A DNA stretch of 32,000 bases from Isorropodon fossajaponicum endosymbiont JTNG4 (GTDB lineage Bacteria; Pseudomonadota; Gammaproteobacteria; PS1; Pseudothioglobaceae): assembly GCF_016592615.1 (NCBI RefSeq), contig NZ_AP013043.1, positions 1,260,001-1,292,000 of the forward strand, in the 5' to 3' direction. Below, piece by piece: positions 3,054 to 18,768 of the stretch (position 1 is its first letter; each line of letters begins with the position of its first letter). The notes beneath the pieces are model-generated. The model did no database searches and was not told where the DNA came from. It saw only the letters and a program-made list of their open reading frames with translations. The position numbers and the translations under genes are program-made.

Positions 3054-4127
3054 TTAGAACCATGGTCCTAATTTTAATTGGGTCATTAACGCCACAACAA
3101 ATATCCAAATAATGGTGATTGGTAAAAACACTTTCCAAGACAAGCGCATAATTTGGTCGTATCTAAAGCGTGGAAAAGTAGCACGCACCCATAAATATAA
3201 AAACATAAAGAAGGTTGTTTTCGCCAACAACCAAACAATGCCCGGTACCCAAGCAAATGCGCTTTCAAGATAGGGAATAGCTTCAAAAGGAGAATGCCAG
3301 CCACCAAAGAACATCACCACAGCAAGCACCGCCATTAAAATCATATTGGCATATTCTGCTAAGAAAAATACTGCAAACGTCATGCCCGAATATTCAACAT
3401 GTGTGCCACCAACAATTTCTGACTCACCTTCTACAACATCAAAAGGCGCACGATTGGTTTCTACAAGGGCTGAGATAAAAAAGATAATCATCATCGGAAA
3501 CAAAGGAATAAAGTACCAATGAATAATGCCGCCTTGTTGTGCTTGAACAATGGTGTTTAAATTAACACTACCAGCAATCATCACAACTGTTACCAATGCA
3601 AAACCAATGACAATTTCATACGAAACCAGCAAAGATGCACTTCTAAGTGCGCCTAATAGTGGGTATTTGGAATTAGACGCCCAGCCTGCCAAAATAATGC
3701 CGTAAACCCCAATAGAGCCAATCGCCAAAACATACAACAAGCTAATATCTAGATTGGTGACATAAATACCTTCATCAAATGGAATCACTGCCCATACTGC
3801 AATGGCAGGTGCAATCGCCAATACAGGTGCCAGTAAAAATAGATAAATATTTGCCTTAGTCGGAAAAATGATTTCCTTGGTCATTAGCTTTAAAGCATCA
3901 GCAATAGGCTGCAACCAACCTTTTGGACCAACACGATTAGGTCCGATACGTAATTGCATATAGCCAATCACTTTGCGTTCAGCGTAAGTGAAATACGCCA
4001 CCACTAACATCAGCGGCATCACCAAAGCAATTGCCTTAATCAAAATAATTAAAATACTAGCCACTGTGCCATCAAGCCAAGGAATCAGCGTATGCAACAT
4101 TTGCACAAAGGCTTGCCAAAGCTCCAT
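3054..4127 (-). CDS. nuoH: NADH-quinone oxidoreductase subunit H
   Basis: NuoH/ND1 motifs ([30 protein letters not shown]-like [16 protein letters not shown]). I place the start at ATG 4127-4125 (MELWQAF...), which shares one base with the nuoG TAA at 4127-4129. The ORF-track start at 4178 would overlap nuoG by 52 nt. Confidence 0.92.
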
Positions 4128-6382
4128 TACGCTTGCTCCTGAGTGTTGGTTGCATGATTGGTATTGATAAATACACAATCATCTGCCACTACACTAGTGA
4201 TCACCACAGGCACCCCTAAATATTTATCATTGGCTGATAAGCCTAATATTTCAGCACTTGCTGGGTTCATGTAAGCGCTGTTCATTTGTCCGATTTTAGT
4301 TTTTTGCAATGCACTACTGTGTCTTAATACAGCATCAATGCTGTAAGGTGAACTTTGCCAAATTGTGCTAATACCATTATGTTTACTAGCCAGATTGATG
4401 CACTCATCATGGATATGTTTTGCATGTGGTTGATGAGATATTTCAGCCACAACCTGGGTAGAGTCTACATAATGAAAGCCTGGCAATTCTAATAAATCAG
4501 CCATGACTTTTAAGACCTTCCAAGCAGGTTTGACTTCATTTGGTGCTTTAACTGCTGCCGTATAGGATTGCATATCGTTGTTAATATTAAGCTGCGTTCC
4601 TGAAGTTTCATAAATACTGGCAATCGGCAAAATAACATCTGAATAGCCAGCAACGGTATTGTCTTTAAAACTATTTAAAGAAATGACAAAAGTATCCTCT
4701 GGTGTGAAGGCTTTAACGGCTGTGTCTAAATCATGAAAATCGTACTGCGGATAAATGTCTAACAAAATAAAGCCACGCATATCAGACGCAAGCATCGTAT
4801 TAACATCCATGCCAGAGTTTTGCGGCACAAACCCAACCAAATTAGCCGCTATAGTGTTTGCTGTTACACTTAAATTAAGTGTTTTACTATTAGTATTGTG
4901 AGCAATTTGGGTGACTAGATTAGCAATGACTGAAGCATCTTCATTGTTAACAACATGCTCACCTAAAATAATAACCGAACTGTTAGAATTTAACAACTTA
5001 GAAGCTATATTATTAGCAACTTCATCAACCTCAACAGTTGTCAAATAATCAGGCAACTCTTGAACATTACTGGTCATAACTGACTTAAGCACACTTGCCA
5101 ACGTAGACGCTATTTTGCTTGGCGCGGTAATATTTTCAGTATTAAGCGGATAGTTAAAATCAAATGCCATTACATTTAATACATCAATATCAGCGCTTTT
5201 TTTTGTGGCTTTGCGCAAACGATGATTAATCATGGGTTGCTCTAATCGAATGTTAGCGCCTACAATAAGGGCGTAATCTATCCTTTCCAATGCATCTAAT
5301 TTGATGTTTGAACCAAGTACAATAGCATTGTCTAAGTTTTTAACATTTAAACGATGGTCAATATTGTCACAACCAACTTCTGTTAGGATTTTTTTCAATA
5401 AATAAAGTTCTTCCATGGTTGCTGTGCTTGATGCTAAAGCACCTAATTGATTGGCTTTTTGATGCTTTAAAACATGACTATTGAGTCCTTTTATAGCATA
5501 ATCCAATGCCGCCTTCCAGCTCACTTGTTTCCACTGTCCTTGGACTTTAATTTGAGGCTCTAACAATCTATTTTCGTGCGTTAAGCCCTCATACGAAAAG
5601 CGATCACGATCAGAAATCCAAGTTTCATTAACTGCATCATTATCAGCAGACACAACTCGTTTAACCTTGCCTTTATAAGTTTGCACAAACAGATTTGAAC
5701 CCACTAAATCATGCCTTGCGACACTAGGCATTGAATGCATCTGCCACGACCTTAACTCATATCTAAATGGCTTAGAGGTGAGTGCGCCGACTGGACAAAC
5801 ATCAATCATATTGCCTGACAATTCAGATTGAATACCTTCTCTCAAAAATGGCTCAATCTTTAAATGCTCACCTCGTCCAGTACCGCCCATCTCCATCATG
5901 CCAGCAATTTCTAAACCAAAACGCACGCAACGCGTGCAATGAATACAACGTGTCATATCCGTTTGGATGAGTGCGCCAATATCACTATCTGGCACAATGC
6001 GTTTGCCTTCTGAAAAACAAGAAACATCTGAGCCATATTCAACAGCCACATCTTGCAACTCACATTCGCCACCTTGGTCACAAATTGGGCAATCAAGCGG
6101 ATGGTTAATGAGTAAAAATTCCATCACTGCCTTTTGACTAGCTTTGGCTTTGTCATTCTGTGTGTGGACTTTCATACCCTCATTCACAGGCGTAGAGCAC
6201 GCAGGCTGTGGCTTGGGCGCGCCTTCCACATCTACCAAACACATCCGACAAGAGGCAGCTACTGAGAGTTTTTTATGATAGCAAAATCTTGGCACACTAA
6301 TGCCTTCTCTATCAGTCACCTGAATGAGCATTTCACCTGCTTTGGCTTTGACTACACTGCCATTAATTTCAATTTCTATCAT
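4127..6382 (-). CDS. nuoG: NADH-quinone oxidoreductase subunit G (751 aa)
   Basis: N-terminal 2Fe-2S and 4Fe-4S cysteine clusters ([42 protein letters not shown]) followed by a molybdopterin-like domain. Confidence 0.95.
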
Positions 6383-6640
6383 AATTCTTTTAATACTTCG
6401 TATTGCTTTTTAATGTTGTCTTTAAAATAATTAGGAATTCTATCTCCAATCCAATACATCTATCAAAAATGGGATATTAGACTCCTTTAAATCATCCTTA
6501 AAGTGCATAAACTCTTCAAAATCAAGTGGCTTGTCATCTTTGGTTTTCACCACCAAATCTAAATCACTGCCATTACAAGCATCGCCATTAACCCTACTTC
6601 CAAAACAACCAATCGATATATTCTTTCTTGATAAAGAAAC
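6379..6640 (-). pseudogene. Remnant of an HI0073-like minimal nucleotidyltransferase (MNT, DNA-polymerase-beta superfamily); 5'-truncated and frameshifted
   Basis: My translation of a frame not in the ORF track: ...ISIGCFGSRVNGDACNGSDLDLVVKTKDDKPLDFEEFMHFKDDLKESNIPFLIDVLDWR then TAG (6440-6442). One base later it resumes as [20 protein letters not shown] then TGA (6379-6381). GS...DxD NTase motif. The frame is closed upstream by TGA 6641-6643 with no start codon. Confidence 0.7.
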
Positions 6641-7038
6641 TCATTTTCTTTATTAGAGATATTATTAAATGTCCAATTAATAACGCCATGATAGCCTGGA
6701 TCTACCACTGTAGAATTAGTTACAATTCCTTCTCTTGACAAATCTGTTACTGGAAACATATAAGTAAATAAATCGCATTTTGGATATAGTTTATGAACTG
6801 CATCTCTACGAAAATCAAGTGTTTCAAATGACATAATCGCAACTGAATTACCTGTAGGTAATTTAAAGCCTTCCTTGTGTTTACTGATATCAAACTCTTT
6901 GCCTATATGCATGTATTCTCCTTTAGCGGCTAAACGCAAAATATAGGCATTAGAACGAACACGACTCTCATCGCCATTGATAATAATGTTATTATCAATC
7001 AATTTTTTTAGTTCAATATCATTTAATGTTTTTGCCAT
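6559..7038 (-). CDS. dCTP deaminase/dUTPase-fold protein (159 aa), probably 3'-truncated; inserted between nuoF and nuoG
   Basis: LNDIELKKLIDNNIIINGDE...SNAYILRLA, FKLPTGNSVAIMSFETLDF and TDLSREGIVTNSTVVDPGYHGVINWTFNNISNKENEFLYQERIYRLVVLE align by eye with E. coli Dcd blocks (CDRDIEAWLDEG...VDVRLG; LHPGELALAVTLESVTL; SSLARLGLMVH...[35 protein letters not shown]). The last ~27 codons overlap the NTase remnant out of frame. Confidence 0.62.
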   Translation of the reverse strand: MAKTLNDIELKKLIDNNIIINGDESRVRSNAYILRLAAKGEYMHIGKEFDISKHKEGFKLPTGNSVAIMSFETLDFRRDAVHKLYPKCDLFTYMFPVTDLSREGIVTNSTVVDPGYHGVINWTFNNISNKENEFLYQERIYRLVVLEVGLMAMLVMAVI

Positions 7039-7044
7039 TTTTTT

Positions 7045-8313
7045 CTACCCTCTCACTATGCTTTTACCGTGTTCAATGTAATATTCAAACTCTTCACGGA
7101 AACACCGTAAAAAACTTTCCACTGGCATTGCTGCAGCATCACCGAGTGCGCAAATGGTGTTGCCCATAATTTTATCTTGTACGCTTAATAATAAGTCAGT
7201 ATCGCCCTGTTTACCATTGCCATCAATAATGCGTTTTAATACGCGATATAGCCAACCTGTACCTTCACGACAAGGGGTGCATTGTCCACAAGACTCATCA
7301 TAATAAAAATGTGCCAATCTTGTTAGCACTTCTACCATGCAAGTTGACTCATCCATAATAATAACTGAGCCTGCGCCGAGCATTGAGCCTGCTTTTTCAA
7401 TACCGTCATAATCCATGGTCATGTTCATAGCAACTTCTGCGGTGAGTACTGGGGTTGATGAGCCACCTGGAATCACGGCTTTTAACTTAGCACCGTCACG
7501 CATGCCACCTGCCATCTTGAGTAAATCTTTAAAAGGTATGCCCATAGGCACTTCAAAATTTGCCGGATTTTTAACATGACCTGAGATTGAAAATAACTTA
7601 CAACCACCAGAGTTTTCAACGCCGATATCTGCAAACCACTGCCCGCCACGGCTTAGAATTTCAGGCACACTTGCAAAACTCTCAGTATTGTTAATCGTAG
7701 TGGGTTTGCCAAACAATCCTACATTAGCAGGAAATGGCGGCTTAAATCTAGGCTGACCTTTCTTACCTTCAATAGATTCTAACAAAGCAGTTTCTTCACC
7801 ACAAATATAAGCGCCTGCGCCTAAGTGTGTGTACAAATCAAAATTAACTGAACTTTTGTTAATATTTTGACCTAGTAATCCTGCCTCATACACCTCTTTT
7901 AACGCATATTCAAAGCGATAAAACGGTTCCATAAATTCACCGCGGATATAATTATAACCGACACTAGCGTTCATAACAAAGCCACCAATTGCCATGCCTT
8001 CAATCACGGCGTGTGGATTAAACCTTAAAATATCTCTGTCTTTACAAGTGCCTGGCTCACCCTCGTCTGAATTGCAAACCACGTATTTCTGCCCATCAGA
8101 ATGACGTGGCATAAAGCTCCATTTAAGTCCAGTGGGAAACCCGGCACCACCACGACCACGCAAGCCTGAGGCTTTAAGCTCATCAATAATGTGTTCAGGT
8201 GTTAACTGACCTTTTATGATTTTGCGCCAGACTGAATAGCCACCACTGGCTTCATAAGTCTTGAGCGAGTAGCACTGGTCTTTGGTCAAATTTTTAAAGC
8301 AAACCTCGTTCAT
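7045..8313 (-). CDS. nuoF: NADH-quinone oxidoreductase subunit F (NADH/FMN-binding)
   Basis: [28 protein letters not shown] and [12 protein letters not shown] motifs. Confidence 0.97.
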
Positions 8314-8783
8314 TTGAGGTTGTCCAAAATTTGATCAATTTTATCAGCCGTTAAATTTTCAAAATATTCATCATTAATTTGAAACATTGGCGCGCCCACA
8401 CAAGCACCCAAACACTCAACTTTTTTAACACTAATCAAGCCATCAGGTGTTATTTCACCCGTTCTAACGCCCAATTTATTTTCCAAATGCGTAATTAAAT
8501 CATCAGCACCATTCAACATACATGAAATATTATGACAAAAACGAATCACATGTTTGCCGACTTTTTTATGATTATAATTTTCATAAAAAGTTGCCACTTC
8601 TTGAGCAGCAATACCTGGCATATCTAAATAATCAGCCACTGCTTGAATCGTATCAGCACTCAATTTGTTTTCATTTTCTGCTTGAACAATTTTTAAAGCT
8701 TGCATAACAGCAGAGCTTTTCCTGTCTTTTGGATATTTTGCAATCCAAGTGTCAATTTGTTTTTTTGCGTCAATTGAAATCAT
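8310..8783 (-). CDS. nuoE: NADH-quinone oxidoreductase subunit E (2Fe-2S)
   Basis: 157 aa with [10 protein letters not shown]...[11 protein letters not shown], the NuoE/24-kDa pattern. 4-nt overlaps on both sides. Confidence 0.95.
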
Positions 8784-10034: not shown

Positions 10035-10649
10035 TTATTTCCTGATTACTCTTGGTACGTTAATATTGGGCTCAATACTCACTTTTTCATAAACCACTCG
10101 ACCTAAGTCTTCGTCATAACGCATTTCAACTTCGCCAATCATTGGGAAGTCTTTACGTAATGGATGGCCTTTAAAACCATAATCAGTCAAAATCCGGCGT
10201 AAGTCCGTATGATTTTCAAACAAAATACCCATTAAATCAAAGGCCTCGCGTTCATACCAATCAGCAGATGCCCAGATATCAGTAACTGACTTAATCATAG
10301 GCTCGGCCTCATCAACAAATGATTTCACTCTAATGCGTTTGTTTTTACTAACAGATAGTAAATGATATACCACAGCAAAACGTTGCTCATGTCTATCTTC
10401 CGAGCCTTGATGATTGCGCCCTCTGGAAAAGCCAGAAGCGCTGGCATTGCCATTCCAGTCTGATTGTCCATAAGTTAAATAATCAACACCACATAAATCT
10501 ATTAACGTGTCAAAGGAGAAAAAATCTCTTAATTTTAAACAGGTTTTAATAATATCCTGAGAATCAACTGTTAAAGTCAGCTCGCCGAAAGCTTCAAGCA
10601 AGTGGTGCTCACCGAAAACCTCAATTAATGATGCTTTTAAATCTTGCAT
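10035..10649 (-). CDS. nuoC: NADH-quinone oxidoreductase subunit C (separate from nuoD)
   Basis: [39 protein letters not shown], the 30-kDa subunit signature. Confidence 0.93.
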
Positions 10650-11128
10650 TAGGTTCTTGCAATGGTGTTAGTACGACGGATTTTATCTTGCAGTTGCATG
10701 ATGCCGTATAGCAATGCTTCTGCCGTTGGTGGGCAGCCCGGGACATAAATATCAACGGGAACAATACGATCACAGCCCCTAACAACTGCATAAGAGTAAT
10801 GGTAATAACCGCCGCCATTCGCACACGAGCCCATAGAAATTACCCATCTTGGCTCAGGCATTTGGTCATAAACTTTGCGTAAAGCTGGTGCCATTTTATT
10901 GGTGAGTGTACCCGCTACAATCATCAAATCTGATTGACGTGGCGTGGGTCTAAAAACAATACCAAAGCGGTCTAAATCATAGCGAGAAGAGCCTGCTTCC
11001 ATCATCTCCACCGCACAGCATGCCAAGCCAAAAGTCATAGGCCAAAGTGAGCCTGTTCTTGCCCAGTTAATGATACTGTCAAGTGATGTGGTTACAAAAC
11101 CTTGTTTCATTAAGCCTTCAATTGCCAT
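10649..11128 (-). CDS. nuoB: NADH-quinone oxidoreductase subunit B
   Basis: [24 protein letters not shown] and VPGCPP motifs. Confidence 0.97.
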
Positions 11129-11131
11129 TAG

Positions 11132-11488
11132 CTATTCCCATTCAAGTGCGCCGTTTTTCCACTCAAAAACAAAACCAACCACCAATAAAAATAAGAAAAT
11201 ACTAATCGCAATAAAGCCAAACCAACCAAGTTGAGACTGAACTACCGCCCACGGAAAAACAAAAGCAACTTCTAAGTCAAACAAGATAAATAAAATAGCC
11301 ACTAGATAATAACGCACATTGAAATACATACGCGAATCATCAAAGGCAGGAAAACCACACTCAAATTGAGTATTTTTTTCTGCATATGGTTTACTTGGTC
11401 CTAGTAAATAACCAATTAACATGGGTCCAACACCAAAGGCAAGCCCTAAGAAAATAAAAACAATGATAGGTAGATAGTTTTCTAACAC
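11132..11488 (-). CDS. nuoA: NADH-quinone oxidoreductase subunit A
   Basis: 118-aa, three-TM protein with FECGF motif. First gene of the operon, with AGGAG upstream. Confidence 0.93.
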
Positions 11489-13011: not shown

Positions 13012-15476
13012 AATACGGTTGATATATTTTCAATAATAGGCTCATGCCATGGACCTGTTATTTTATATTTAAATTCAACAACTTTATCAACAATATTATT
13101 AATCAACCTACCTTTAAACAGCACCTTATCCGCCAACCAAACCCCCAAGCCTGCCAAGCCACCACCAGCCAAATAAGTGGCAATCGGCACGGCATCGCTA
13201 ATCGCAGGCAATACTTTTGCCTCTAAATGATAGGTTTGTTTAACGATATCACTTGAGCCTGTTAAGTTAATGGTGCTTGAGCTTGAGTCAAGTTCAAAAT
13301 GGCTAATGGTTGCCATAGAATTATGAATAGAAATTTGTGCATCGATCGTATCATAAGCAAACCCTTTGCTAACCAAATCAGTGACATTTAATTCTAAACG
13401 CTTGGCAATGGATTTAATATTAAGCAATGATAAAACCCGACCAATATTAGGGTCCTTATTGGTAAACACACCTTCTTTAACTTTCATTTTAATCAAACCA
13501 CTGGTGTCTTTAAAACTCATATTCCACGGGGCACAATTACAAAATAAGCGTATGTCAAATTCAAATTGACCACCACGAACCTTTTCTTTGATGTTTAATT
13601 TATCAAGAAATTCACTCAATTTACTGCCTTTTGCTTTAGCAGTGAGTATGGTTCTACCATCAACCCAAACACCATCAAAACTAAGGTTTTGACTACCCAC
13701 ACCTATGCCTAAAAATTCTAAATTAATGATTTTAAGCACCTTATCCTGCGACCCAAGCGTGGCCTTAAAATCAGGCAGCTTGCTTTCACCCACTCGGATA
13801 CCCTGTACACTTAAACGCATACTAGGGAAATCCTTTGCCTGAATATTCCAGTTGCCTTTTATTTTGTCTAATGCTGTTACTTGGAGGTTTGTCAGTCTCA
13901 CTTCAGGCAAAGCACCCTCATTTAGTATAATTTTTACATCAGTTTTTAACGCATCGGACTTAACATTTGCTTGCCATGATTGATCCGAATATTTAGCCAA
14001 ATAAAACTCAAAATTATCATTACTGTTGGTAAGCCCTACTTCAAATAATGCATCTGAGCCGCTATCTTGATGATTAGAATTAATGCGAATATTAAATGAT
14101 TCGCCTCGAATATTGCCCACACCCTTTAAGGTAATTTGATTATTATGCAATGCCAATTGTGCATCATAGTTCTTAACCACAATGGCACCATCCAATGTTG
14201 TCAAACGGTTGTCTTGGATGCTCAAATCAATATCCAATACTGGCTCTGCTTCATCCAATGGTATTATTAAATCTAGTTTGCCTGCCACCTTGCCAAATAA
14301 GCTGAATTGCCCAAGCACATCATTTACACTATCATTCAGGGGTGCATCTTTTAAAAATTGAGTTAATATTTCACTTTGGGTGTTAATTTTACCAACGATG
14401 CTAATCTCTAACTTGTCTTTGCTCATGTCCAGCATTTGAACTTTCACACCTTGCAAAGGCATGTCGTTTAACGTAGTATGATTAATCATAACTGTGATTT
14501 TTTTACCATCAATAGCAATATTTGCATCTAATTGCTTAAGACTTTGCCAATCAGTATTAAACCGTAATTCGGTATTGCTTAAGTGTGCATCAAATTTTAT
14601 CTTTGCTAGTAGTTGCGTTGAAAGATTTTTCTTGATATTGATATTGATATTATCCAATTCACCTGATTGAAATGCATGCTTAATCCATTGATGAGTAACC
14701 TCACCTATCAATGCTATAGGTAAATAATCACTAATATTAATCACATTCATACGCTGGATAAGGCCACTAAATTGGATAAAATCATCACCTTGCTGGTTAT
14801 ACAGTTTAAGGCTTGATAACAACTCAAAATCATCGCCACTCAAAGTAATGGGCAGCGTTAAAAAGCCATTTTGATTAGTCTTAGTGCCAGACAGGGCGAT
14901 TGTAATGTCAAGATGTTTAGTGCCAATACTCTGGTTAGGTATTGTTAACAAAAATTGCATCCCATCTCTTTTAAGCGTTAATGGCGCAATTTCAACTGTA
15001 TCTTTAATAATTGTTTTATTAATATACAAAGATTCAAAAAAAGATAGTTCTTTTAACACATCAAGTGAGACCATATTTTTAATATCGTTTATATTAAAGT
15101 CATCAGGATTAGAATAAAGCACCAAAGTGTCAATATAAATTTGGCTAGGATGATAAATATCATCAAACAAACTTAACAGATTAATATACCAAGATAAGTT
15201 TTTAATCATGACCATTTGCTGAGCCTTGCCAGATGCGATGGAAATATCATGCACTTTTAAAGCAATGCCTTTATTTTCAAAATCAAATGTGATTTTAGAC
15301 AGCTGAACATCAAGCCCAGTTAAACTTGATAATTGAGTTTCAATCGGTGCTTTTAGTAACATTGGAAAGGTGACAAAAAATCCCACTACTAATACAATAA
15401 TGAACGCAAAAATAACACTAACCCAAGTGCTTATTTTTAATACTTTAATACCACTTAAGCGTGTTTTTTTAATCAT
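13008..15476 (-). CDS. yhdP: YhdP/AsmA-like inner-membrane-anchored protein (822 aa)
   Basis: Single N-terminal TM helix (VSVIFAFIIVLVVGFFVTF), a long beta-rich body and a conserved C-terminal block (ITGPWHEP). ATGA overlap with tldD reproduces the E. coli yhdP-tldD order. Family assignment rests mostly on synteny and architecture. Confidence 0.68.
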   Translation of the reverse strand: MIKKTRLSGIKVLKISTWVSVIFAFIIVLVVGFFVTFPMLLKAPIETQLSSLTGLDVQLSKITFDFENKGIALKVHDISIASGKAQQMVMIKNLSWYINLLSLFDDIYHPSQIYIDTLVLYSNPDDFNINDIKNMVSLDVLKELSFFESLYINKTIIKDTVEIAPLTLKRDGMQFLLTIPNQSIGTKHLDITIALSGTKTNQNGFLTLPITLSGDDFELLSSLKLYNQQGDDFIQFSGLIQRMNVINISDYLPIALIGEVTHQWIKHAFQSGELDNININIKKNLSTQLLAKIKFDAHLSNTELRFNTDWQSLKQLDANIAIDGKKITVMINHTTLNDMPLQGVKVQMLDMSKDKLEISIVGKINTQSEILTQFLKDAPLNDSVNDVLGQFSLFGKVAGKLDLIIPLDEAEPVLDIDLSIQDNRLTTLDGAIVVKNYDAQLALHNNQITLKGVGNIRGESFNIRINSNHQDSGSDALFEVGLTNSNDNFEFYLAKYSDQSWQANVKSDALKTDVKIILNEGALPEVRLTNLQVTALDKIKGNWNIQAKDFPSMRLSVQGIRVGESKLPDFKATLGSQDKVLKIINLEFLGIGVGSQNLSFDGVWVDGRTILTAKAKGSKLSEFLDKLNIKEKVRGGQFEFDIRLFCNCAPWNMSFKDTSGLIKMKVKEGVFTNKDPNIGRVLSLLNIKSIAKRLELNVTDLVSKGFAYDTIDAQISIHNSMATISHFELDSSSSTINLTGSSDIVKQTYHLEAKVLPAISDAVPIATYLAGGGLAGLGVWLADKVLFKGRLINNIVDKVVEFKYKITGPWHEPIIENISTVL

Positions 15477-17627: not shown

Positions 17628-17837
17628 ATGAGTATATCAATCAGAGTCAATGAAAATTTATACAATCAAGCCAAAATTCAGGCCAAAGCAGAATTAAGAA
17701 CAGTGCCCAACCAAATTGAATATTGGGCAAGAGTTGGACATGCTGCAATGGACAATCCTGACATGCCAATTGACATGGTTGAAAAATTATTAATTGCAAA
17801 ACGTGAAGCCAATCAGCCTTTTGAATTTATTGGCTGA
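17628..17837 (+). CDS. ParD-like type II antitoxin (69 aa)
   Basis: IRVNENLYNQAKIQAKAELRTVPNQIEYWARVGHAAMDNP resembles the ParD-like antitoxin pattern (RS...Qie.Wa.lG). Its stop shares one base with the toxin ATG (TGATG). Confidence 0.68.
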   Translation: MSISIRVNENLYNQAKIQAKAELRTVPNQIEYWARVGHAAMDNPDMPIDMVEKLLIAKREANQPFEFIG

Positions 17838-18103
17838 TGAATATTGAACAAAAATCTTCTTTTAAAAAGGTTTACAAAAAATTACATAAAAACCAGCGAG
17901 AAAAGGTTAATGAAGCAATTCACACCATTATTAAAAACCCGCTTTTAGGTCAAGAAAAACAAGACGATTTGTCAGGCGTATTTGTTTATAAATTTGATTG
18001 TATCAATCAACAATATTTACTAGCCTATCAATGGAGCAAAGATTATCGTTTATTACTACTTATTGGCGTGCATGGAAATTTTTATAAGAAGTTAAAGCAT
18101 TAA
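17837..18103 (+). CDS. RelE/ParE-superfamily type II toxin (88 aa)
   Basis: SFKKVYKKLHKNQREKVNEAIHTIIKNPLLGQEK...LSGVFVYKF...YLLAYQW....LLLLIGVHGNFYKKL fits the RelE/ParE/YafQ pattern. Coupled to the upstream antitoxin. Confidence 0.75.
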   Translation: MNIEQKSSFKKVYKKLHKNQREKVNEAIHTIIKNPLLGQEKQDDLSGVFVYKFDCINQQYLLAYQWSKDYRLLLLIGVHGNFYKKLKH

Positions 18104-18170: not shown

Positions 18171-18764
18171 TTAAATTCTCTTGCCAAAAATATCTGTGCC
18201 AACACGCACAAAAGTAGCGCCATGAGTAATGGCTGATTCTAAATCATGACTCATGCCCATTGATAAAACATCTAAGTTGGAATATTGCTTAATAATGTTT
18301 GCCATTCTTGCGAAACTTTGTGCTGAATTAGAAGAGTTTGGTATACACATAAAACCCCTTAAAGTAAGATTTTTTAGACTTTCAAATTGAGTAACTAGTT
18401 CATCAATTTGTTCAACCAATACACCTGATTTAGTAGCTTCATTATCAATATTAGTCTGCAAAAGTACCTTCAGTTTGGGTAAGTTTTTTGAACGCTGGTG
18501 CTGGTCATTGAGTCTTTGGGCAATTTTTAAGGTTTATTTGACTGAATAGGGCCATAAAATGCCAAATTAAGTTTTGACTCTTTAAGTGGTTAATTTTTAT
18601 GAGTGCTTCTTGCAGATAATTTTCAGCAAAATGTTGCTGACCTACATCAACCACTTGTTGTAATTCATCTATCGATCTAGTTTTACTCACTGCAACCAAA
18701 GTAACAGACTGAGTGTGATTAACGTTGTTAATTCTTATCTGGACTTTTTCTAAGTTATCTTTAA

Positions 18765-18768
<4 letters not shown>
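18171..18768 (-). pseudogene. yggS: yggS (PLP-homeostasis protein, alanine-racemase-fold) pseudogene
   Basis: Split into 87-aa and 96-aa ORFs. N-part: VTLVAVSKTRSIDELQQVVDVGQQHFAENYLQEA...IWHF. HFIGPIQSNK is readable only after a 1-nt shift at about 18552-18563, and TLKIAQRLNDQHQRSKNLPKLKVLLQTNID only after another shift at about 18531-18538. The usual ~18-residue block containing the HSVDR motif appears to be missing. C-part: LRGFMCIP...LSMGMSHDLESAITHGATFVRVGTDIFG. Confidence 0.85.

Follow-up and report, generated by a model that had tools for sequence, protein, structure and literature searches.

The window analysed here is a 32,000-nucleotide (nt) stretch of the genome of JTNG4, the endosymbiont of Isorropodon fossajaponicum, and this study concerns 666 bases of extra DNA that lie between nuoF and nuoG in its complex I (nuo) operon. 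We conclude that this segment is very probably a non-functional remnant of a multi-gene accessory cassette carried at the nuoF-nuoG junction by part of the Ruthia/SUP05 lineage. It consists of the 5' portion of a gene whose intact homologues encode a dCTP deaminase (dCD)/dUTPase-like domain, a coiled coil and two transmembrane (TM) helices (the dCD-2TM family), fused by a deletion to a truncated and frameshifted gene for a minimal nucleotidyltransferase (MNT), the antitoxin of HEPN-MNT toxin-antitoxin (TA) modules. The dCD-like gene and the HEPN-MNT pair are not partners; they are distinct modules that came to lie side by side at a single hotspot of insertion. An initial annotation, made from the letters of the window alone, had described a foreign cassette in which a deletion fused two decaying genes, and had proposed that these genes once formed a functional pair; it was partly supported, because the cassette, the deletion fusion and the decay were right and the pairing was refuted.

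The ORF list places the nuo operon on the minus strand, with nuoA at 11132-11488, followed by nuoB, nuoC, nuoD, nuoE (8310-8783), nuoF (7045-8313), nuoG (4127-6382), and then nuoH, nuoI, nuoJ and nuoK. Within this operon the nuoF-nuoG junction is the only one with extra DNA, and all features of the segment given below are on the same strand. The upstream boundary is nuoF (422 amino acids [aa]; 78-95% aa identity to the NuoF proteins of 80 related loci), which ends with a TAG at 7045-7047. A direct read of the sequence shows that a spacer of six A residues (7039-7044) separates this stop from the ATG of a 159-aa open reading frame (ORF), ORF159 (6559-7038; CVFO_1384), and that a Shine-Dalgarno (SD)-like GAGAGGG lies inside nuoF just upstream of the spacer. 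ORF159 is a chimera: its codons 1 to ~145 (6602-7038) are the 5' portion of a dCD-2TM gene, as shown by homologue alignment, an AlphaFold2 (AF2) model, Foldseek and intact orthologues at the same locus in L081, L096 and L097, and its last 12-14 codons, which end in EVGLMAMLVMAVI before the stop, are out-of-frame MNT DNA. The MNT remnant has two parts. Segment A (6443-6606; about codons 27-82 of 101) translates as IGCFGSRVNGDACNGSDLDLVVKTKDDKPLDFEEFMHFKDDLKESNIPFLIDVLDWR up to a stop, contains the GSX10DXD motif, and has no start codon, the frame being closed upstream by a stop at 6641-6643. Segment B (6379-6442) is the C-terminal part in a shifted frame. Its TGA (6379-6381) overlaps the ATG of nuoG (6380-6382) as ATGA (6379-6382), and nuoG itself (751 aa), the downstream boundary, starts with MIEIEI, as in those cassette-bearing relatives that were read. 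The initial annotation had read the nuoF stop, the 6-nt gap, the ORF159 start, the closed nucleotidyltransferase frame and the overlap with nuoG in the same way. Its statement that nuoG lacks an obvious SD sequence needs some qualification, because a weak purine-rich tract, AAAGAA, precedes the ATG.

To place the segment among its relatives, a NuoF probe was used to collect 80 species-level loci of the Ruthia/Vesicomyosocius/Thioglobus/SUP05 clade. The nuoF-nuoG gap was 120 nt or less in 64 of the 78 loci in which it could be measured, and was mostly 2-40 nt; thus the segment is accessory DNA, as had been proposed. The nearest species-level genomes, Ruthia Cpac, Ruthturnera Tsphm01 and two Vesicomyosocius genomes, have no insert, their gaps being 7-16 nt. 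The loci with inserts showed several combinations of genes. In three of them (L046, L062 and L067) the gap holds an intact HEPN gene (138-140 aa, RX4H) followed by an MNT gene (100-102 aa), with no dCD-like gene. Two modules are present in L031, only a C-terminal MNT remnant in L027, and unrelated cargo in L025 and L068. L097 has a dCD-2TM gene alone between nuoF and nuoG, and L096 has nuoF, a dCD-2TM gene and an unrelated 218-aa ORF.

The most complete arrangement was found in L081, a 1.07-Mb metagenomic contig of the SUP05 clade, where nuoF is followed by a gene for the 318-aa dCD-2TM protein P0002, a HEPN gene (NTase_sub_bind, 139 aa), an MNT gene (Polbeta NTase, 93 aa) and nuoG. The stop codon of the dCD-2TM gene overlaps the start of the HEPN gene. 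An IS1595-family element (L081:9644-10420) with an 8-bp target duplication, AAAGACAA, interrupts the 3' end of this MNT gene, and the original MNT tail with its ATGA overlap with nuoG is kept downstream of the element. The same ATGA junction was present in L085, L046, L031 and L089-L095; on every contig recovered for proteins sharing 90% identity or more with the L085 MNT (P0097 and P0099), the MNT gene immediately precedes nuoG and overlaps it by 4 nt.

A second cassette is that of L085, from Ca. Ruthia sp. Asou_11_S2, whose nucleotide sequence agrees with the window at 98.6-98.8% of positions over nuoE-F and from the middle of MNT through nuoG-H. In this genome only 35 codons of the dCD-like gene remain, joined to a 652-aa secreted-type ORF, which is followed by Lcl_C and PRiA4_ORF3 ORFs, an intact 139-aa HEPN gene and an intact 101-aa MNT gene that overlaps nuoG. 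These additional ORFs (L085:6100-9100) encode a 652-aa protein with a signal peptide, a 204-aa Lcl_C-domain protein and a 151-aa PRiA4_ORF3-like protein; the first is only 82.5% identical in nucleotide sequence to its L092 counterpart, and the other two are missing from L092. L092 carries a different lesion, found also in L089 and L090: a 70-aa ORF (L092:3241-3453) in which the first 11 codons of the dCD-2TM gene are in frame with its two TM helices as a result of an internal deletion. In L092 and L089 this ORF is followed by a 660-aa ORF, a truncated HEPN gene and an intact MNT gene; the L092 ORF still encodes a small membrane protein. An earlier idea, that L085 and L092 share a derived state in conflict with vertical descent of the longer dCD fragment of the window, was dropped because the 70-aa ORF is an independent internal deletion. 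The window, L085 and L092, the three close lineages, carry three independent lesions of a single ancestral array.

Alignment of the window with the dCD-like orthologues of L081, L096 and L097 and with the L085 MNT gene placed the breakpoint at ~6601-6607, inside a shared TGTTT/TTT microhomology, where codon ~145 of the dCD-like gene is joined to codon ~27 of MNT. With the breakpoint marked by a slash, the junction reads ...CGATTGGTTGTTTT/GGAAGTAGGG in the window, ...ATTTTT/AAATTAGAAG in the dCD orthologues and ...GGGTGTTT/GGAAGTAGGG in the L085 MNT gene. On the 3' side of the breakpoint the remnant departs from the L085 MNT gene at two points, a substitution and an extra G at 6444, and is otherwise identical to it. 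These alignments confirmed that a deletion had fused two genes, and corrected several details of the initial annotation. Because the breakpoint lies at ~6601-6607, the last 12-14 codons of ORF159 are MNT DNA, as had been recognized, and the out-of-frame stretch is only about 45 nt (6559-~6601) instead of the 82 nt first given. The N-terminal loss from MNT, first put at roughly 25 residues, is 26-27 codons, and the 1-nt frameshift, first placed at about 6440-6442, is the G at 6444, which creates the premature TAG at 6440-6442.

The comparisons show the gene identities, the orthology of the locus, the deletion, the frameshift and the independence of the two modules; from them we infer the following order of events. 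The ancestral order would have been nuoF, a dCD-2TM gene (~318 aa), HEPN (139 aa, RX4HXY), MNT (101 aa, GSX10DXD) and nuoG, with the MNT stop overlapping the nuoG start; in the Ruthia branch, a secreted-type ORF of 652-660 aa and small ORFs would also have lain between the dCD-2TM and HEPN genes. One microhomology-flanked deletion removed the 3' half of the dCD-like gene, everything between the two genes including HEPN, and the first 26-27 codons of MNT. Its size would be ~4 kb with an ancestor like the 98.7%-identical locus of Ca. Ruthia sp. Asou, or ~1 kb with one like L081. The antitoxin, dispensable once the toxin was lost, would subsequently have taken the +1 frameshift; such decay would be expected because the toxin had been deleted.

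Several points weigh against this reconstruction and against the conclusion that the cassette is dead. The loss of function is read from the lesions themselves, and ORF159, which is still open and lies in a well-expressed operon behind an SD-like motif, may have residual activity. The ancestral state was rebuilt from other genomes, and the size of the deletion (about 1 or 4 kb) depends on the relative chosen. In addition, the HEPN and MNT genes of L085 and L092 (95.7 and 94.4% nt identity) are more similar than the flanking nuoF and nuoG genes (89.4 and 90.6%), and therefore some lateral exchange may blur a purely vertical scenario. A similar difference was seen between L085 and L081, with 84% identity for MNT and the 5' end of the dCD gene, 79% for nuoF and 72% for nuoG. 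These comparisons, which rest on short stretches, hint at lateral exchange of cassettes through the conserved nuo flanks, and a vertical-only history of the cassette is not proven.

The identity of the dCD-like gene was determined from its family, because ORF159 alone gave weak matches: Pfam DCD at 2.9e-4 (21.4 bits; cut-off 27) and TIGR02274 at 1.6e-6 (27.9 bits; curated cut-off 92.8). A word-indexed protein search with ORF159 found only ORF159 itself, and an exhaustive phmmer search found 91 representatives, 53 of them at E <=1e-10. Most of the better-scoring representatives were 290-390 aa long, and ORF159 residues 1-147 aligned to their residues 1-~147; the match to residues 1-149 of the 318-aa P0002 had 71% identity and an E value of 3e-62. 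Because ORF159 matches only the first ~147 residues of its longer relatives, it is the N-terminal half of a longer protein. The comparison of the junction in relatives that the initial annotation had called for therefore bore out an accessory insert, and showed that what had been taken for a dCD-fold gene is only half a gene, the full-length members being 316-345 aa. These comprise the dCD-like domain, a conserved linker (YxGxYQxxxG..S.R), a coiled coil and two C-terminal TM helices. The coiled coil and TM helices, or a TIR domain, were present in most of the homologues of at least 200 aa that were examined, and are deleted in the window. ORF159 retains TDLSREG and VDPGYHG, which correspond to the conserved phosphate- and water-binding motifs (S/T-x-x-R and VDxGxxG) of archaeal-type dCD-like dUTPases. 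The active-site C-terminal arm (YxGxYQ...R) is missing from it, along with the coiled coil and both TM helices; Y161 and R176 of the arm of P0002, which are nearly invariant in the broad family alignment (A2), are gone.

Although P0002 also scored below the cut-offs with the family models (TIGR02274, 45.4 bits; Pfam DCD, 22.5 bits), the dCD/dUTPase fold of the family is secure from the family profile and the structural model. A profile of 32 members matched dUTPase/dCD chains in the PDB at 8e-16 to 6e-6, the top group at 8e-16 to 3e-14; the best was the S. tokodaii dUTPase (8e-16), and the chains of 9ln0 and 8y1w (155-156 aa), deposited as 'dCTP deaminase' in entries whose titles name dUTPase P45 and the T. 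pacificus dUTPase, followed at about 1e-14. The AF2 model of P0002 (mean predicted local distance difference test score [pLDDT] 89.6) superimposed on dUTPase P45 (9ln0) with a template modelling score of 0.91, a root mean square deviation of 1.9 Å and a Foldseek E value of 4e-12. The model also matched bifunctional dCD-dUTPases, and dCD/dUTPase structures were retrieved at probability 1.00.

The domain is dUTPase-like and probably not a deaminase, the latter point being judged from a motif alignment. In the A2 stretch G120-x-L-N-W124-x-x-x-N128 the deaminase position lacks a conserved Glu; T, L, I, V and other residues occupy the column. The catalytic Glu of deaminases, which follows DxGFxG (E138 in E. 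coli and E145 in M. jannaschii), presumably corresponds to this column. The closest solved relatives of the family are dUTPases, which also lack the deaminase Glu. Full-length homologues share their fold, and the motifs S/T-x-x-R-E/x-G, VDxG(F/Y/W)xG and YxGxYQG, with archaeal dCD-like dUTPases (S. tokodaii 2yzj/2zdc, T. pacificus 8y1w and P45 9ln0) and with bifunctional dCD-dUTPases. Compared with these enzymes, the family adds to the shared fold either a coiled coil with two TM helices or TIR, additions not known to us from any housekeeping dUTPase or dCD, and it carries no conserved Glu where deaminases do; ORF159 differs further in lacking the C-terminal arm that intact homologues have. 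In one representative, P0003 (343 aa), the dCD-like domain is combined with a SAM-like N-terminus of the phage-integrase type and with a NUDIX domain. This protein may represent a further family architecture, or else a chimera produced by gene calling or assembly.

The second gene was likewise identified as an MNT-type remnant, in agreement with the initial annotation. After conceptual repair it matched Pfam Polbeta at 8.7e-12 (45.5 bits; cut-off 26.9), NTP_transf_2 at 1.8e-6 and NCBIfam MntA at 4.6e-9 (36.1 bits), the last below the equivalog cut-off of 60 bits (NF047752). The intact L085 MNT also fell under that cut-off (1.6e-10, 40.8 bits). The catalytic motif GSX10DXD could be read directly as FGS-RVNGDACNGS-DLD. 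In PADLOC-DB v2, the remnant matched PDC-S09 candidate models at 1e-9. No HEPN toxin with the RX4H(xY) motif is present in the window, and one was found at the orthologous position in L085, L081, L046, L062 and L067; that of L085 (139 aa) matched TIGR01987 (HI0074) at 7e-15 and has RNDTAHEY as its RX4HXY motif.

The HepT/MntA type VII TA systems (HI0073/HI0074 family) are therefore the known systems closest to this module. The window remnant has the minimal nucleotidyltransferase fold and the GSX10DXD motif and matches the same families, and intact orthologous loci hold an adjacent HI0074-family HEPN gene with RX4HXY. There are four differences. The window has no toxin, and its antitoxin is truncated and frameshifted; the order at the nuo locus is HEPN then MNT, the reverse of that in HI0073/HI0074 and in the Shewanella MntA-HepT pair; the nuo-locus module has no visible promoter of its own and lies inside the nuo operon, where its MNT gene terminates in overlap with the nuoG start codon; and the nuo-locus proteins score under the NCBIfam equivalog cut-offs. 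Because the toxin is absent and the antitoxin, with no start, no first 26-27 codons and an extra G, is not a complete translatable gene, no TA function can remain, and the sequence gives no sign that a TA or defence module still works at this locus.

A scan of 6000-7400 for promoters and terminators found sites no more often than in shuffled sequence. One promoter-like site within the MNT remnant (6466-6437; 10 of 12 positions) was not counted as evidence, because the scan was at chance level. The window contains no tRNA and no Rfam family that would mark an integration site, and the overlap of the MNT stop with the nuoG start leaves no room for attC-like or flanking repeats, for which no systematic search was made. 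Just before nuoG the sequence, AAAGAATTATGA, still comes from the 3' end of MNT and resembles the junction AAAGGATAATGA of the cassette-less loci L006 and L009; this end may have a cis role in nuoG translation. A chance mini-ORF of 26 codons (6379-6459, minus strand; ATG at 6457-6459), which starts with MYWIGDRIPNYF, ends in KEL and stops at the TGA overlapping the nuoG ATG, has no evident SD sequence; it could in principle maintain termination-reinitiation at nuoG.

ORF159 is probably still translated from the nuo mRNA, given its place in the operon, 6 nt after nuoF and behind the GAGAGGG. It could be a functional, lineage-specific truncated protein that is kept because it is useful, for instance as an accessory factor for Nuo or as a soluble dUTPase-like protein that binds nucleotides. 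Its 159 codons have stayed open, and family-conserved residues, including SREG and VDPGY, are retained. However, the protein lacks the near-invariant C-terminal arm, for which a counterpart, YxGxYQG...KR, is seen in the closest solved dUTPases, and its final 12-14 codons are out-of-frame MNT DNA. Furthermore, the L085 sister keeps only 35 codons of the dCD-like gene and another lineage only 11, which indicates that the domain is dispensable in this clade. We consider a retained function of this kind unlikely.

An error of assembly or consensus, such as a collapsed region or a homopolymer error that produced the frameshift, is highly improbable. In favour of such an error, the extra G is a single-base difference from a close relative, and some Ca. 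Ruthia symbionts have been suggested to vary structurally within a host (bioRxiv 10.1101/2020.02.01.930370). The contig, however, is a 1.45-Mb complete-length sequence; the G is outside any long homopolymer (GGAGAT versus GGAAT); the junction shows the microhomology that a real deletion would show; and independent assemblies hold other, equally decayed states of the cassette.

The relation between the two genes was examined in 81 further loci with full-length dCD-2TM family members (533 kb of metagenome and viral sequence), which were found with the narrower alignment A4 because no stretch of the broad A2 was conserved enough. No HEPN or MNT gene was detected in these loci by tblastn, and no nucleotidyltransferase or HEPN family was listed in Pfam and PADLOC scans of 100 ORFs neighbouring dCD-2TM genes. 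The neighbourhoods were mixed, with housekeeping genes, a few phage or transposase genes, and components of type I restriction-modification (R-M) systems. Four loci named individually (L097, L096, L084 and L088) also have the dCD-2TM gene without any MNT. A search for intact adjacent dCD-fold and MNT genes, as the initial annotation had recommended, thus yielded dCD-2TM loci without MNT and HEPN-MNT loci without dCD; the missing HEPN gene, from which a new kind of pair had been surmised, had lain between the two and was deleted, and it is intact in L085 and L081. That a dCD-fold protein and MNT were partners in an undescribed nucleotide-directed TA or defence pair, as their adjacency in the window and their presence together in L081 (where the dCD-2TM stop overlaps the next start) might suggest, is extremely improbable, because that next gene in L081 is HEPN and not MNT, the classical pair of HEPN (RX4HXY) with MNT (GSX10DXD) is complete in L085, L081, L046, L062 and L067, the dCD-2TM gene stands alone at the junction in L097, and no HEPN or MNT was detected in the 81 other loci.

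The history proposed above, deletion followed by decay of a multi-gene cassette, resembles that of deletion pseudogenes in the reductive genomes of vesicomyid clam symbionts, with which the segment shares a microhomology-flanked deletion, frameshifts and differing states of decay in sister lineages. It differs in that the decaying DNA lies inside an essential operon and abuts a start codon. Lineage-variable gene decay has been described in Ca. Ruthia. Another resemblance is a seemingly split YggS-like gene for a pyridoxal phosphate-binding protein elsewhere in the window (18171-18768, minus strand), with ORFs of 87 and 96 aa, the second of which matches the C-terminal part of Ala_racemase_N at 9.5e-9; it is probably a further frameshifted gene, consistent with ongoing gene decay. 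Near it, at 17628-18103 on the plus strand, is an apparently intact type II TA pair, with ParD-like (69 aa, 4.5e-16) and ParE-like (88 aa, 6.6e-31) genes in an ATGA overlap.

The initial annotation had assumed that complex I operons are normally contiguous, which does not hold in this clade. When all nuo junctions of L001-L095 were measured, inserts of more than 120 nt were found at seven: A-B (7/68), C-D (8/71), D-E (16/75), E-F (3/82), F-G (14/78), G-H (2/68) and I-J (10/65). None was found at B-C, H-I or J-K. These counts are rough, because the set includes near-duplicate metagenome contigs and loci picked for carrying a cassette. The cargo, on the operon strand, included MNT and HEPN pairs (D-E and I-J), an RHH and ParE pair (G-H), a methyltransferase-like gene with an R.Pab1 restriction gene (D-E), small TM proteins (C-D) and a conserved ORF of 136-138 aa with no assigned function (E-F). 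Taken as a group, the TA and R-M cassettes occupy the C-D, D-E, E-F, F-G, G-H and I-J junctions. Examples are L062:2905-5056, 5523-6001 and 10247-11165; L029:3617-5531; L012:11091-11761; and L081:4414-4808 and 14259-14929. Since inserts occur at many nuo junctions, the nuoF-nuoG cassette is one instance of a clade-wide habit.

A role of the intact dCD-2TM family in defence or abortive infection is plausible but unproven; it is suggested by R-M neighbours and by the alternation of C-terminal domains. Type I R-M genes adjoin the dCD-2TM gene in about 4 of 31 informative contexts; in L100 it directly follows hsdM-hsdS, and in L084 it adjoins a type I R-M locus with an AAA_13 gene. In P0009 (L086:625-1671) a TIR domain (TIR_2, 8.5e-18), which matches the PADLOC models ThsB, PDC-S66 and TIR-TM, takes the place of the coiled coil and TM helices. 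Exchange of effectors in this manner is typical of immune proteins. PADLOC-DB v2 contains no model for the family, and P0002, P0006 and P0010 gave no match to it; a match of ORF159 to MTase_II at 1.7e-4 was rejected as spurious. The viral collection yielded only one family locus, and thus no evidence that the family is mainly phage-borne. In the literature searched, nothing was found on a defence protein joining a dCD/dUTPase-like domain to TM helices or TIR, or on TA modules embedded in nuo operons.

Two kinds of known system resemble the family. Anti-phage dCTP deaminases, which reportedly act by nucleotide depletion, likewise have a dCD-superfamily domain in an immune context, as the occasional type I R-M neighbours of the family would suggest; however, the family has no PADLOC match and no conserved catalytic Glu, and it has C-terminal TM helices or TIR and not an N-terminal kinase-like domain. 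Abortive-infection or defence proteins that combine, in one chain, a sensor with a swappable TM or TIR effector (for example CBASS 2TM effectors, TIR-TM and ThsB-like TIR) resemble it in that its C-terminus alternates between two TM helices and TIR on the same N-terminal domain. They differ in that the dUTPase-like N-terminal domain is found neither in PADLOC nor in the literature searched, and that no signalling partner was identified; the sensor-effector role of the family is thus putative.

Taken together, these observations allow a tentative proposal, which we regard as possible and somewhat doubtful: the intact parent of ORF159 would belong to an undescribed single-gene anti-phage or abortive-infection family, and nuo junctions would serve as a safe harbour for promoter-less cassettes. 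The dUTPase-like, probably trimeric domain would sense or hydrolyse a (modified) dNTP, or sense a phage factor, and would then trigger the effector, the two TM helices linked through the coiled coil or, in one variant, TIR. HEPN-MNT, ParDE-like, type II R-M and dCD-2TM cassettes would be transcribed together with complex I and, at nuoF-nuoG, would be translationally coupled to nuoG. If this is true, the window holds a dead copy of such an arrangement.

The finding for JTNG4 as such is a modest one, an ordinary pair of pseudogene fragments in a symbiont whose genome is being reduced. We would annotate ORF159 (CVFO_1384) as truncated, and the nucleotidyltransferase as a pseudogene of a HEPN-MNT antitoxin. 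The family to which ORF159 belonged is rare and, as far as we found, uncharacterised; by joining a dUTPase/dCD fold to a coiled coil and two TM helices or to TIR, it offers a testable candidate immune protein. The nuo cassettes of SUP05, Thioglobus and Ruthia provide a natural system in which to ask whether selfish modules use essential operons for expression and for protection from deletion.

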